A DNA stretch of 32,000 nt from Schaalia odontolytica (GCF_005696695.1 NZ_CP040006.1:1620001-1652000); one strand, 5' to 3'. Counted from the first letter of the stretch, positions 26,078 through 29,992 are shown. Numbers and translations are program-made. Notes: generated by a model from the letters alone, not told the origin.

Positions 26078-29000
26078 CTAGCTGATCAGCTGTCCCGTCT
26101 CAGAGAAGGTGTACCACGTCCAGAAGATGCGCAGTCGGCCCGTAGCCATCGCGCCGCTTCCGGTCTTCAGGTAGTACCAGGCACCACCGTCCTTGAGCCA
26201 CCCCGTCATCATCTTGCCGGTGGTGGGGTTGAGATAGTACCAGGTGTCGCCGTCCTTGACCCAGCCGGTCGCCATGACGCCCGTGGCCGGGTCCAGGTAG
26301 TACCAGGAGATTCCGTCGAGGACCCAGCCGCTCGCCTGCGCGCCCGATGCGTTGTGGTAGTACCACGAGCCCTGCTCCTTCACCCATCCGGTGCGCATGT
26401 AGCCGCGCGCGTCGAAGCGGTACGTCGCTCCGTCGATAGCGAGGGTCGCATCGGCGGGGTACGTGCCGTCCTCGTAGCGGTACCACCAGCCGCGGCCATC
26501 CCACTTCCAGGTACCGGCCTTGGGGGCGGGCGCGGGGGCACTGACATGGATGGTGGCGCTGGCGGACACGCTCGGCTGCGTCGGGTCGGAGACGGTGATG
26601 GTCGCGTCGCCCGCTCCCACCGCGCGTACCTCGCCGGTCGCACTGACGGTCGCCACGGCCTCGTCCGAGGAAGACCAGACGACGCCGGTCACGTTCGCGT
26701 CCGCGGGCTCGTGGGTGGCGCTCAGCGCGAGGGTCTCCCCCACGCCGAGCGTGGCGGACTCGCGCGACAACGCGAGCGACGTCATGGGGATCGCTGTGAG
26801 GGCGACCGGCGCCGTTGCCCCGTTGACCGGCCAGTCCCACACGTGCAGGTAGATCGTCGACGGGTCACCGCCGATGCTCGTCAGGGCGTCCTTCAGCGGC
26901 ACGTCGAAGTGGATGTGGACCAGACCGTCCTCGCTGCGCCCGGTCGGGTAGACCTCGGCGCCGCGCTCGACAACCTTGCCGTCGTCGGTGGCCGAGAAGC
27001 CGATACCGGCGATGGCCGAGGAGTCGATGACGTCGAAGGACAGGACGCGATCCTTGCCCTCACCCGACACCGTCACGTTGGAGATGACGGGAGCCTGCGT
27101 ATCCAGGATGACGCTGTAGCTGATGGCCTGGGTCGCGGGCGACGGGCCGTAGGTCGAGGCATCGATCGTCAGCGTGTAGCGCCCGTCCGGCAACTCGGTG
27201 CCGTCCGGCGCATAGCCGTTGAACCAGGGGTCGCAGCCCGGCGCGGAGTCCTCGACCGTGCGCGGAGAGCGCGTGTGCACGTCGTAGATGGACCGATCCG
27301 CGCGCCCGCACGTGAAGGAGCGGATCGTCTCCCCGGCCTCGTTCCTAAAGGTGTAGGTCAGCGAGGGAACGGAGCGCAGCAGCACCGTGCCCGGGGTGAC
27401 GACGGTCCGGGCGTCCTCGTGCGTGGAGCGCGAGATGACGAGGAGGTCGGGGTTGACCCCGTTGATCATCCTCTCGTCCTCGACGTCGAAGGGGCTCTGC
27501 TGGCCGAAGGGCAGGCGCCCATTCATGAACGTCGACCCGTATCCGCTGATGTGGTTGTCCGGGGTGACCAGGTCGAAGATCGCAGGCGCACCCCAGGAGC
27601 CGTAGAAGCCCACGTAGGGGACGGTGAGGTTCGGAGCCCCGTCGGCGCTCGTAAAGGTGACGGCGCCGTCGATGAACGTGCCCTTGGGCGTGTTCTCCGC
27701 AGCGTACGAGGCGAAAGCCTCGCGCGGGGTCACGGTAACGGCCACGGTGGCAGTTCCCTTGGCGGGTACGGTCACCGATTCGGAGGAGAAGGTCAGGTCG
27801 ATGCCCTGTCCCGCCCAGTTGGTCGAGTGGTGAGTGAACAGCATGCTCTCGACCTTTTCGGACAGCGCCTGTCCGCCCAGCGTGTAGGTGTGGGCGGTGT
27901 CGGAGACGTTCGTCAGGGTCACCTGGAAGGTCCACCCGGAGGTTCCGTCGCCCAGGTCGGCCTTGGGGCGCGAGAGGTCAGCTGCCCCGACGACGCTTGG
28001 GTACACGGACGAGGTCGTGGCGCCCCGGGCGTCCACCAGGCCTGCACCCACGCGGCGCGGCGAGTAGAAAGTGCCGTTATTCTGCTCCGCGTCCACGATC
28101 GGACGGGCGGTACCCATCAGGAGGTTCGTGACCACGGCGTTCTTCTCGGCGGCGGACAGGGCTGCAAAGTCCGGATCGGTTGCCACGCGCTGACGCACGA
28201 GGGTGGCGACCGCGCCGGCCTGAGCCGAGGCCTCGGCCGTGCCGGACAGTCGATCGTAGTAGTTCCCGGGGGTCGCGGACATGACCGCGCCGCCGGGGGC
28301 CGCGACCTCGGGCTTGAGCCGCAGGTCGGGGGTCACGCCCGTGGAGGAGAAGTCGGAGGCGTGGACCCCCTCGGGCACGGTGAGGATCGTGGAGGGAGAG
28401 ACGTTCACCTCGATCGATCCGCTCTCCGAGGCCTTGATCGCGTCGTAGAGGCGGTTGCGGTCCGAGGTCGTGATGGTCGCCATCGGCAGGTTGAACCAGC
28501 GATCGACCGACCACTTGATGGGGGTCTCGCTGTCGTACCAGTGTCCGAGCAGAACGCCGGCGGGCTTGCTGGTGAGGGACTTGAGGGCCTTGATCTTGTG
28601 CTTGACCTCCACCGAGTTACCGCGTGAGTCGTTGCCTCCCAGCTCCTCGAGGAGGATCGTGCGCGACAGGTCCCCGTAGTCCGATCCAAGGTGCTTGGCC
28701 AGGTCCTCGCTCGAGCCGTTTCCGGCGTATACAACGCGGTACGTGCCCTCGGCGAGGGTGTCGAATCCGGGGCCGTCACCCTTGCTCATGCGAGCCAGGG
28801 GGCGGTAGCCGATCAGGTGGTCACCGAAGGTGAGGGCACCCATGATCTCCTGTTCATTGACCGAGGCCACGGCGAGGGTCGAAGAGAAGGCAGCGGGGAA
28901 GCCGAGCGCGCCGTTGTCGGGGTCGTCGGCTCGACCATAGCTCTCGACGTCACCGGCGGGCGCGTAGACGGTCGTGCCCTGCGCGCCGAGCGCCTCGTAG

Positions 29001-29992
29001 ACGTGGGAGTAGAGGGCCTCGGCGTCGTCCGTGAATCCTTCGGTCTTGGAGAAGGAGACCGAGACGACGTCGGGCTTGAGGACCATCGCGTCGTCGAGCG
29101 CGGCCAGGAGGTTCACGTCGCTGGCATCATTGCCCGGATCCTTCGTCACCTTCGCGACGATGAGCTGAGCCTGGGGCGCTGCGCCCGCGAACTGTCCGCT
29201 GTTAGCCGCGGCGAGGGCTGCGACGTGCGTGCCCTGGCTGTTGGCGCTGCGGGCTCCGTCGCCTCCTTCCTCCGTGGCCAGCACGTCGGTGTCCCCGTCA
29301 CCGTAGTCGTAGGCGAAGGGGATCTTGGGACTCACCCAGACACCGCCCTTGCCGGCGCCCAGCTGCGAGGCGAGCGAGGCTACCGAGTCCTGCGTGAAGC
29401 GCAGCGACGCTGCATCCATGTCGCCGGCAAAAGCCTGGTGCGAGGTATCGATGCCGCTGTCGATGAGCTCGATGACCTGCCCCTGGCCCTTCTGGACAAG
29501 GCCGTCGGCCCGCATCATCTGGGCCGCTGCACCGGTGGCTGCATCCGACTCGTCGCCCCCGGCGACGGCTCGATAGCCGCCGGAAATCTCTTCATCCGTG
29601 GCGAACGTGTGACTGCCATCGAGGAAGGCACCCTTGACGCCATCCGTCGCCTTGATGGCGCCAAGCGTCGAGGCGGGCGCCTGGATCGCAAAACCGTCAA
29701 AGGCGTGGTGGTAGTCGCGCACGTCGGAGATGGTCGCGCCGGGGCTGGCCGCTGCTACGGCCTCGCCGATGCGTTTCTTCATCTGCGCGTAGTACACGGC
29801 GTGGTCGGCCCCGGCGTCGCCCGCCTCGAGCTGGACGATGATCGTCGCCGGGGAGTCGTTCGCGCCCTGCTGGGGCGACGAGGCCTGGGTGGCGTCGGCC
29901 GCGTCCGCAAAGGCGGCGGGCACGCCGATCGTGGTGAGCGCGAGGGCGCCGGCCGCTATGAGCGTCAGCGCTGCGCGTCGGTAGTGAAACAT
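26078..29992 (-). CDS. S8-like cell-envelope protease paralog with substituted catalytic Ser and oxyanion Asn (predicted pseudo-protease), Big_2 domain and cell-wall-binding repeat anchor
   Basis: The ORF-track frame is 26078..30163. The likely start is ATG 29992 (MFHYRRAALTLIAAGALALTTIGVPAAFA, signal peptide), giving 1304 aa. It is collinear with 21705-25634.
Catalytic positions:
- Asp box VIELIDSG (29459-29461) retained;
- His box QGTHVAALAAAN (29225-29227) retained;
- the Asn position reads YAPAGD (28949-28951);
- the Ser box reads LSGTAEASAQAG (Ala codon 28235-28237).
A Big_2-like Ig domain (~26540-26800) precedes 7 wall-binding repeats. Confidence 0.85.
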   Translation of the reverse strand: MFHYRRAALTLIAAGALALTTIGVPAAFADAADATQASSPQQGANDSPATIIVQLEAGDAGADHAVYYAQMKKRIGEAVAAASPGATISDVRDYHHAFDGFAIQAPASTLGAIKATDGVKGAFLDGSHTFATDEEISGGYRAVAGGDESDAATGAAAQMMRADGLVQKGQGQVIELIDSGIDTSHQAFAGDMDAASLRFTQDSVASLASQLGAGKGGVWVSPKIPFAYDYGDGDTDVLATEEGGDGARSANSQGTHVAALAAANSGQFAGAAPQAQLIVAKVTKDPGNDASDVNLLAALDDAMVLKPDVVSVSFSKTEGFTDDAEALYSHVYEALGAQGTTVYAPAGDVESYGRADDPDNGALGFPAAFSSTLAVASVNEQEIMGALTFGDHLIGYRPLARMSKGDGPGFDTLAEGTYRVVYAGNGSSEDLAKHLGSDYGDLSRTILLEELGGNDSRGNSVEVKHKIKALKSLTSKPAGVLLGHWYDSETPIKWSVDRWFNLPMATITTSDRNRLYDAIKASESGSIEVNVSPSTILTVPEGVHASDFSSTGVTPDLRLKPEVAAPGGAVMSATPGNYYDRLSGTAEASAQAGAVATLVRQRVATDPDFAALSAAEKNAVVTNLLMGTARPIVDAEQNNGTFYSPRRVGAGLVDARGATTSSVYPSVVGAADLSRPKADLGDGTSGWTFQVTLTNVSDTAHTYTLGGQALSEKVESMLFTHHSTNWAGQGIDLTFSSESVTVPAKGTATVAVTVTPREAFASYAAENTPKGTFIDGAVTFTSADGAPNLTVPYVGFYGSWGAPAIFDLVTPDNHISGYGSTFMNGRLPFGQQSPFDVEDERMINGVNPDLLVISRSTHEDARTVVTPGTVLLRSVPSLTYTFRNEAGETIRSFTCGRADRSIYDVHTRSPRTVEDSAPGCDPWFNGYAPDGTELPDGRYTLTIDASTYGPSPATQAISYSVILDTQAPVISNVTVSGEGKDRVLSFDVIDSSAIAGIGFSATDDGKVVERGAEVYPTGRSEDGLVHIHFDVPLKDALTSIGGDPSTIYLHVWDWPVNGATAPVALTAIPMTSLALSRESATLGVGETLALSATHEPADANVTGVVWSSSDEAVATVSATGEVRAVGAGDATITVSDPTQPSVSASATIHVSAPAPAPKAGTWKWDGRGWWYRYEDGTYPADATLAIDGATYRFDARGYMRTGWVKEQGSWYYHNASGAQASGWVLDGISWYYLDPATGVMATGWVKDGDTWYYLNPTTGKMMTGWLKDGGAWYYLKTGSGAMATGRLRIFWTWYTFSETGQLIS
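26081..26521 (-). repeat. Cell-wall-binding repeat module, copy 2
   Basis: It encodes 147 aa: KAGTWKWDGRGWWYRYEDGTYP...GWVLDGISWYYLDPATGVMATGWVKDGDTWYYLNPTTGKMMTGWLKDGGAWYYL... It has one repeat fewer than copy 1. Confidence 0.85.

Follow-up and report, generated by a model that had tools for sequence, protein, structure and literature searches.

Why would a bacterium keep, next to an intact cell-envelope protease, a full-length paralog that lacks the nucleophile serine? The question is raised by a 32,000-nucleotide stretch of the Schaalia odontolytica genome (GCF_005696695.1, NZ_CP040006.1:1620001-1652000), referred to here as the window, in which two large genes of the S8 subtilase family lie side by side on the minus strand. 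A first-pass annotation made from the sequence had read one of them (gene A) as an active enzyme and the other (gene B) as a maintained pseudo-protease, not a simple product of decay, displayed on the wall beside it. The analysis described here indicates that gene B very probably encodes a selected pseudoenzyme, in which catalytic residues have been lost and the gene is conserved under purifying selection. The best overall explanation, which we hold with a little better than even confidence, would be a conserved dead surface subtilase with a non-catalytic binding or scaffold role.

Domain architecture and catalytic positions

Both open reading frames (ORFs) are uninterrupted on the minus strand, with 0 internal stops, and their collinearity and every coordinate assigned to them in the first pass proved correct at the codon level. 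The two genes and the parts of B are listed below.

26078-29992, minus: gene B, cell-envelope-type S8 subtilase homologue without the nucleophile Ser (pseudoprotease), 1304 amino acids
29906-29992, minus: signal-peptide-like N-terminus of B, residues 1-29, MFHYRRAALTLIAAGALALTTIGVPAAFA, read from the translation
29618-29839, minus: I9-like propeptide region of B, residues 52-125; sub-threshold for Pfam Inhibitor_I9, aligns with the same region of A
28838-29497, minus: catalytic domain of B, N-terminal part, residues 166-385, with D178, H256 and D348 (Pfam and structure alignment); ratio of nonsynonymous to synonymous substitution rates (dN/dS, omega) 0.12
28358-28837, minus: insert of about 160 residues in B, residues 386-545, at the PA-domain position of cell-envelope proteases (CEPs), collinear with A and with ScpA and SpyCEP as aligned
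28013-28357, minus: catalytic domain of B, C-terminal part, residues 546-660, with the Ser box SGTAEASAQ (alignment and codon reading)
27611-27934, minus: Fn3-like domain PF06280 of B, residues 687-794 (Pfam), aligning to SpyCEP and ScpA
26798-27577, minus: beta-rich stalk region of B, residues 806-1065, common to A and to fusion proteins with leucine-rich repeats (LRRs)
26579-26785, minus: Big_2 Ig-like domain, residues 1070-1138 (Pfam), in B and not in A
26081-26545, minus: choline-binding-type or cell-wall-binding repeats of B, residues 1150-1304 (Pfam)
21705-25634, minus: gene A, paralog with canonical D206, H278, N370 and S616, predicted active, 1309 amino acids

The product of gene B is identical to KSW10262.1, QCT35814.1 and WP_060567590.1, all under the database label 'S8 family serine peptidase [Schaalia odontolytica]'. 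Its start at 29992 (MFHYRR...) is supported by the gene calls of homologues, almost all of 1304 residues. A and B are collinear, with 48% identity across 1068 aligned residues and 62% across the C-terminal repeats, and their G+C content at third codon positions (GC3) is 0.891 and 0.887, respectively. In B, Peptidase_S8 (PF00082) matches over the whole profile (positions 1-288 of 288, residues 169-651; E 3.1e-28, 99.4 bits, cut-off 21.8), followed by fn3_5 (PF06280, E 2e-16) and the repeats (Choline_bind_1/3: PF19127, E 5e-23; PF01473, E 3e-15), which also match those of LytA, Cpl-1, CbpF and toxin A in a phmmer search of solved structures. A contains Peptidase_S8 across the full profile (E 1e-40), fn3_5 and choline-binding repeats. 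The order typical of CEPs, with a large insert inside the catalytic domain and Fn3-type domains after it, is thus present in B.

Most of the architecture that had been ascribed to both proteins stands, including the S8 boxes, the stalk and the repeats, and two labels have to be weakened. The Inhibitor_I9 match of B falls below the Pfam cut-off (E 0.0056, 17.8 bits against 21.2), and 'PA-like insert' is a positional label only, because the Pfam PA model matches neither B nor A. Display on the wall is suggested by the choline-binding-type repeats, which would provide a putative attachment to wall or glycans; no LPXTG sortase motif is present in B, whose C-terminus consists of these repeats and ends in ...TGQLIS.

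The four subtilase positions of A are canonical (D206, 25017-25019; H278, 24801-24803; N370, 24525-24527; S616, TCG, 23787-23789). B retains the Asp (D178, GAC, 29459-29461) and the His (H256, CAC, 29225-29227), has Asp in the oxyanion-Asn column (D348, GAC, 28949-28951) and Ala in the nucleophile column (A586, GCC, 28235-28237), and carries E587 (28232-28234) where Met follows the nucleophile in active enzymes. These assignments, already made in the first pass, hold when both proteins are aligned by phmmer to solved structures: 'lsGTAeASaQ' of B pairs with 'qtGTSMASPQ' of SpyCEP and 'yAPAGDv' with 'vvAAGNe', the Asp and His boxes of B align normally to SpyCEP, and A is canonical throughout. 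D348 also aligns with Asn155, the oxyanion Asn of subtilisin BPN'. No alternative Ser was found in the nucleophile column of B in the alignments, those to the C5a peptidase and SpyCEP structures included. S583 was considered as a substitute nucleophile and rejected; it is also found in A and is not conserved among the Ser-less relatives. Read from codons and alignments, B cannot use the subtilase mechanism: Ser has become Ala, the oxyanion Asn has become Asp and the box is rewritten to GTAEASAQ. Self-removal of the propeptide would be expected to fail without the Ser, or to need a protease acting in trans.

A clade of Ser-less subtilases

Is the loss peculiar to this strain? A search of about 5.8 billion proteins, in which 8000 candidates were scored, returned 1839 matches at E <= 1e-20. 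Every protein covering the Ser box among the top 120 matches lacks the Ser; the combinations found at the Asp, His, Asn and Ser positions were D-R-D-A (64), D-H-D-A (23) and D-H-N-A (20), and a few tips have Asp or Val in place of the nucleophile. The Ser-less state extends throughout the B-like proteins found, down to 54% identity, with Ala or Gly and rarely Asp or Val. B orthologues are almost all exactly 1304 residues long, two clusters of B-like proteins at 90% identity hold 2025 and 2840 member sequences, and the gene is intact in 15/15 complete genomic loci and in essentially all of several thousand sequences. The organisms in 58 genomic loci (GTDB species representatives) are Schaalia odontolytica and oral species of Pauljensenia/'Actinomyces'. 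The names 'Xylanimonas cellulosilytica strain 352_XCEL' and 'Sanguibacter keddieii strain 250_SKED' stand on records (L009, L006, L042) that contain the Schaalia island of B at 86-95% protein identity, and these assemblies are probably mislabelled.

Neighbour-joining analysis of the catalytic domain groups every Ser-less sequence into a single clade, with the A-type clade next to it. A single loss explains this topology most simply, so the Ser was probably lost once. The clade stems from a duplicated A-type enzyme of the Schaalia/Pauljensenia lineage and radiated afterwards. Its members differ in the insert at the PA position, which some have and some lack; the shorter dead paralogs in related species (1050-1180 residues) do not have it at all. 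In several of the dead lineages His has given way to Arg, Asn to Asp or Glu, and Ala to Gly. Dead lineages that are separate from one another show the same N-to-D and H-to-R changes, and Arg at the His position is found even in close B orthologues (82-87% identity), with constraint unchanged.

For a wider survey, 1.84 billion cluster representatives were scanned exhaustively with HMMER, which gave 3610 relatives at E <= 1e-3; paralogs without the insert were placed here by local pairwise alignment and not by hmmalign. Canonical D-H-N-S was found in 129 of the best 150 relatives as aligned, and in 5 more among 10 doubtful cases that were re-aligned locally. Six non-canonical representatives fall inside the B clade (P0121, P0124, P0125, P0165, P0173, P0180). 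Three others are unrelated singletons outside it (P0162, D-W-N-S; P0186, D-H-R-F; P0264, D-A-N-S) and may be independent pseudo-subtilases, which indicates that dead CEP-type proteins arise sporadically elsewhere. By this alignment, the B clade is the only large conserved dead CEP family in the sample of the best 150 relatives.

Selection on gene B

The strength of selection was estimated from pairwise dN/dS (NG86) in 12 genomes carrying both genes (66 pairs, which are not independent of one another). Over the whole gene dN/dS was 0.09-0.19 for B and 0.09-0.20 for A. For the catalytic core it was 0.14 in B (95% confidence interval, CI, 0.10-0.18) and 0.07 in A (0.04-0.10), and for the insert at the PA position 0.13 in B (95% CI 0.08-0.20) and 0.23 in A (0.16-0.32). 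Given core values of 0.14 and 0.07, the dead head is relaxed about two-fold relative to the live head, yet it is far from neutral. Across 85 B orthologues, 69% of the columns are invariant in the N-terminal part of the catalytic domain and 72% in the insert, as against 39-54% in stalk and repeats.

An important conclusion of these comparisons is that the dead head and the insert are the best-conserved parts of B, and that B is kept intact by purifying selection about as strong as that acting on its active neighbour. The proposal of a maintained pseudo-protease is thereby upheld, as the Ser-less state persists to 54% identity in full-length genes with dN/dS well below 1, and frameshifted alleles are rare.

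Two positions of the same 85 otherwise well-conserved orthologues are highly variable: B289 (29126-29128), with 7 residues, and B656 (28025-28027), with 8. B289 lies at the rim of the cleft, in the strand that corresponds to residues 100-104 of subtilisin.

A few B alleles are split into two ORFs by a frameshift (L059 3769-7682, L060 3739-7652, L061 6001-9910), giving products of 732+565 residues in two samples and 835+482 residues in the third. These alleles, which form two small clusters (P0097, P0095), represent either rare real pseudogenisation or metagenome assembly error.

A variable island of surface-protein genes

The proposed pairing of an active with a dead gene is correct in that B adjoins A, and too narrow in that both belong to a larger unit. 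The order in the 12 genomes, all on one strand, is a 2180-residue active S8 protein that also contains LRRs, a BspA-type LRR protein of 872-876 residues, B and A, and the choline-binding-type repeat module is found on all the genes of this island. In the window, A, B and the LRR gene follow one another on the minus strand, and all three products are predicted to be secreted. The surroundings of B contain the following elements, of which the hairpins were located by reading and folding the sequence.

30187-32000, minus: BspA-type LRR_5 protein upstream of B, with the same choline-binding-type repeats; 5' end cut by the window end (orthologues 872-876 residues)
26015-26058, minus: GC-rich, terminator-like hairpin just past the B stop codon (folding)
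25790-25850, minus: perfect hairpin in the spacer between B and A (stem 16 bp, z -6.0)
21638-21671, minus: perfect hairpin immediately downstream of A (stem 15 bp, z -5.9)

The hairpin after B is strong (81-nt stretch, -43.2 kcal/mol, z -4.6, 0/200 shuffles as stable) and stands at the beginning of a B-A spacer of about 440 bp. The two perfect hairpins are very stable and could be either terminators or repetitive elements. Behind the LRR gene, the hairpin was not significant (z -1.5), and a scan of sigma-70 and terminator consensus sequences gave nothing above shuffle expectation.

Comparison of the loci indicates that the A-B 'pair' belongs to a one-strand island of Schaalia/Pauljensenia that varies in content and holds two active subtilases, one to three BspA-type LRR proteins and zero to four dead subtilases. 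Two genomes (L058, L039) have the order LRR-LRR-A, with no dead gene upstream of the A-type gene. At the other end of the range, contig00006 of Pauljensenia sp. 20925_1_34 (L027 / L032 / L038) carries a nine-gene one-strand island consisting of a 2249-residue active S8 gene, an LRR gene, four dead genes in tandem (DHNA, DRDG, DRDA and DHDA, none of which has the insert at the PA position), two further LRR genes and, last, an A-like active S8 gene. An obligatory A-B partnership is not indicated, since A occurs without a dead gene upstream and a terminator-like hairpin follows B; the obligate pair was rejected as a model on the occurrence of A without B and the varying number of dead copies. The family also expands in active form: Pauljensenia sp. 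and Actinomyces sp. ICM47 (L053 9818-25373, L054 410-16223) have separate arrays in which four S8 genes with canonical D-H-N-S, a stalk and choline-binding-type repeats lie in tandem.

Further, the island has produced chimeras. In one locus (L020 12354-16370) the translated intergenic spacer joins an upstream BspA-LRR gene in frame to a B-type gene that has lost about B258-590, a stretch reaching from the His box as far as the Ser box, insert included; elsewhere the product is 74-80% identical to B. Because such proteins occur in several clusters (P0093, P0094, P0099, P0100, P0103, P0104) and on several contigs, the LRR-B chimera is a maintained form and not a one-off error.

The rest of the window is unremarkable chromosomal DNA, with ROK kinases, an M81 peptidase, an Opp-type ABC transporter, arabinose genes and a permease-OHCU decarboxylase fusion. 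Two ROK-family genes, the M81 (MlrC-like) metallopeptidase and the Opp-type oligopeptide transporter lie at 454-10166, about 12 kb from the subtilase island, and a link of these genes to peptide nutrition is possible. The fusion is a single ORF of 646 residues (19342-21282, plus strand) that joins a xanthine/uracil permease (PF00860) to a C-terminal OHCU decarboxylase (PF09349), an unusual union of a transporter with an enzyme of purine catabolism.

What could a dead subtilase do at the cell surface?

The role that we tentatively propose for B, by analogy and from its sequence, is that of a putative adhesin-like module for non-catalytic surface binding or scaffolding. The choline-binding-type repeats would fasten B to the cell wall or to glycans, with the head lifted on the Fn3/Ig stalk, and this head would recognise a ligand other than the ancestral peptide substrate bound in the ancestral cleft mode. 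B may in this way be one interchangeable head in a variable set of surface proteins, beside BspA-type LRR heads and active protease heads. Such a role is favoured because head and insert are conserved, because the display scaffold is shared with LRR heads and the chimeras swap heads, because the island is variable in the manner typical of surface proteins, and because ScpA and ScpB are a known case of adhesion without catalysis (PMC9082167).

The residues at the former catalytic positions of the dead clade are limited: Asp is always Asp, His is His or Arg, Asn is Asn, Asp or Glu, and Ser is mostly Ala or Gly. Fixed differences from the active relatives include Glu at the Met222 equivalent (96% conserved), Ala at the Pro225 equivalent, Pro at the Ala152 equivalent and a Tyr changed to Trp. 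This pattern points to a new constraint; one possibility is that the old site has become an acidic pocket or, where Arg is present, an internal salt-bridge network.

Several results weigh against a binding or scaffold role of the head. When the segments lining the cleft were defined as the equivalents of subtilisin 100-107, 125-131, 152-157 and 217-225, their entropy in active lineages was 0.78, against 0.95 in the rest of the catalytic domain; in dead lineages it was 1.01, against 0.78, and the SLG strand reads SFS, SVG or SFM. Omega followed the same trend, with 0.048 in the cleft and 0.073 in the rest within A orthologues and 0.134 and 0.137 within B orthologues, so that the extra constraint on the cleft is gone. 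The catalytic core deletion of the P0093 type and the few frameshifted alleles indicate that the B head is dispensable in some backgrounds. The estimates of selection are drawn, as stated above, from genome pairs that share members. Finally, the structure prediction was informative only in part: an AlphaFold2 model of B residues 30-805 from a 19-sequence alignment had a mean predicted local distance difference test (pLDDT) of 59.7 and a predicted template modelling score (pTM) of 0.38, with most of the core below 50 and unusable for pocket geometry, and the propeptide (pLDDT 74-92), the insert (mostly 70-92) and the Fn3 domain as its only confident parts. Foldseek with this model placed ScpA, ScpB and SpyCEP first (E 1e-23 to 1e-16, TM about 0.23). 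A substrate trap that uses the ancestral cleft was also considered and is not favoured; the idea is weakened because the cleft segments of the dead lineages have lost their extra constraint, and they vary more.

The main rival to a binding or scaffold role is a regulator or partner of the Csp kind, in which B would bind an active neighbour (A or the 2180-residue enzyme) or its substrates and control the maturation, localisation or specificity of that neighbour, as CspC and CspA do for CspB. We regard this analogy as unlikely to hold for B, although it has real attractions. B lies directly upstream of A in 12/12 genomes with downstream sequence, every dead gene shares its island with active CEP genes, B has retained an I9-like propeptide without being able to remove it by its own action, and the Csp system is a precedent for an active/dead set (PMC7200643; PMC6636752, PMC12880746). 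Contrary to this, A-type genes occur in the order LRR-LRR-A, the dead paralogs number from 0 to 4 per island, and the terminator-like hairpin that ends B about 440 bp before A implies separate transcription signals. The synonymous divergence (dS) of B is also about 1.4 times that of the adjoining A for the same genome pairs (mean dS by domain 0.32-0.44 against 0.22-0.34; L003-L018), which speaks against a single common history and suggests different recombination histories within the island. A decoy or a device of antigenic variation, in which dead copies soak up host antibodies or inhibitors aimed at the active enzymes or diversify the surface, is improbable. It would fit the varying gene number and recombination-type chimeras of the island, the diversification of cleft segments between paralog lineages and the few hypervariable surface positions such as B289; within orthologues, however, selection is purifying and not diversifying (omega about 0.14), 48% identity to A makes for poor mimicry, and a diverged cleft would not bind the same inhibitors.

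Two further explanations retain very little weight. That B is a hydrolase with a non-canonical mechanism, built for example on the retained Asp and His with Glu587 and Asp348, is very improbable: Asp178 is invariant, conservation of the Glu at the Met222 equivalent reaches 96% and acidic residues appear repeatedly at the oxyanion position, but His has become Arg in large parts of the clade, including orthologues of 82-87% identity, the nucleophile position is Ala or Gly, the box offers no other conserved Ser, Thr or Cys, and restoring the triad in Csp pseudoproteases gave no activity (PMC7200643). Less credible still is an ordinary pseudogene in slow decay, for which the split alleles (P0097, P0095) and the lineage with a deleted catalytic core could be cited. 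Against it stand the full-length genes in nearly all of several thousand sequences and in every complete locus, the whole-gene omega, and a clade old enough to have diverged to 54% identity and still be intact.

Non-catalytic binding or scaffolding remains the preferred reading. A bolder one concerns the oral community. S. odontolytica is a model host of Saccharibacteria. The dead heads might be a diversifying family of surface receptors with which oral Actinomyces recognise other cells, possibly serving as attachment sites for, or shields against, Saccharibacteria (TM7) epibionts, a speculation to which we give little credence.

Significance

To our knowledge, it is mainly the Csp germination system that has so far provided pseudo-subtilases with genuine functions. 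Gene B would add a second bacterial case, from another subfamily and in large proteins exposed on the cell surface. The evolutionary record of the family is unusually clear, with one probable ancient loss of the Ser, a radiation, parallel changes at the other catalytic positions and selection throughout. The hosts are abundant human oral commensals, and thousands of metagenomic members fall into single clusters at 90% identity. Because B-like proteins are annotated as 'S8 family serine peptidase', counts of proteolytic potential in the oral microbiome include non-enzymes. If the heads bind ligands, they would be new adhesin or receptor candidates and a natural example of a protease fold converted into a binding fold.

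Comparison with known systems

No dead cell-envelope-type subtilase and no account of the Schaalia family of B was found in the literature searched, which extended to S. odontolytica subtilases and to choline-binding and BspA proteins of Actinomyces and where only the Csp proteins and ScpA/ScpB serve as precedents. Pseudo-subtilases and non-catalytic roles of CEPs are already known; the dead CEP-type family in Schaalia is not described there. The remark in the first pass that no active/dead pair of wall-anchored CEP-type enzymes had been described accordingly holds for such enzymes in that literature and has to be qualified for subtilases at large, since CspB with CspA and CspC is an active/dead set with a regulatory function (PMC7200643; PMC6636752, PMC12880746).

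Clostridioides difficile CspC and CspA share with B the S8 subtilase fold, the loss of catalytic residues, their retention in the genome and a position beside an active paralog, and their retained prodomain has its counterpart in the I9-like propeptide region of B (PMC7200643, PMC6636752). They belong to another S8 subfamily, however, and B is not a member of the CspC or CspBA families (21.3 bits with NCBIfam CspC_non_triad NF040808, cut-off 675; 38.3 bits with NF040809, cut-off 1250). The Csp proteins are spore proteins of about 550 residues, without stalk or wall-binding repeats, and act in germinant sensing, whereas B is large and has both.

Two studies concern the response of the host to epibionts. 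Among the genes listed for strain XH001, another adjacent S8 pair, APY09_02365/02370 ('prtP_1/prtP_2'), was not significantly changed with TM7x (PMC10768705). According to a 2026 preprint, Saccharibacteria infection induces in S. odontolytica a cluster of four genes for 'hypervariable, surface-anchored proteins' (PMC13622651). The island of B likewise comprises four surface-protein genes, and the two might conceivably be the same.

The best matches of B among solved structures (E 3e-47 to 3e-38) are the streptococcal CEPs SpyCEP/ScpC (PDB 7edd, 5xyr, 6vjb) and ScpA/ScpB (3eif, 1xf1, 8bty), which have the same order of propeptide, S8 domain with a large insert and Fn3-type domains. They are active enzymes with D/H/N/S, anchored through LPXTG, whereas B lacks the Ser and the Asn and carries choline-binding-type repeats and Big_2 in the place of the sortase signal; the identity is about 20-25%. 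For ScpA and ScpB, an adhesive role that does not depend on catalysis is described (PMC9082167). The general CEP architecture is also shared with lactocepin PrtP and with the LPXTG peptidases SGO_0316-SGO_0317, and SGO_0316_fam is the best NCBIfam match of both A and B (196 and 255 bits), far below its cut-off of 1400. In contrast to that type, B has no LPXTG motif and is catalytically disabled. The oligopeptide ABC transporter and the M81 peptidase of the window recall nutritional proteolytic systems. BspA-type LRR surface proteins and choline-binding proteins, finally, share with B the C-terminal repeat module, the island and the strand, and natural chimeras place a BspA-type LRR head on the B stalk, whereas the head of B itself is a subtilase fold and not an LRR.

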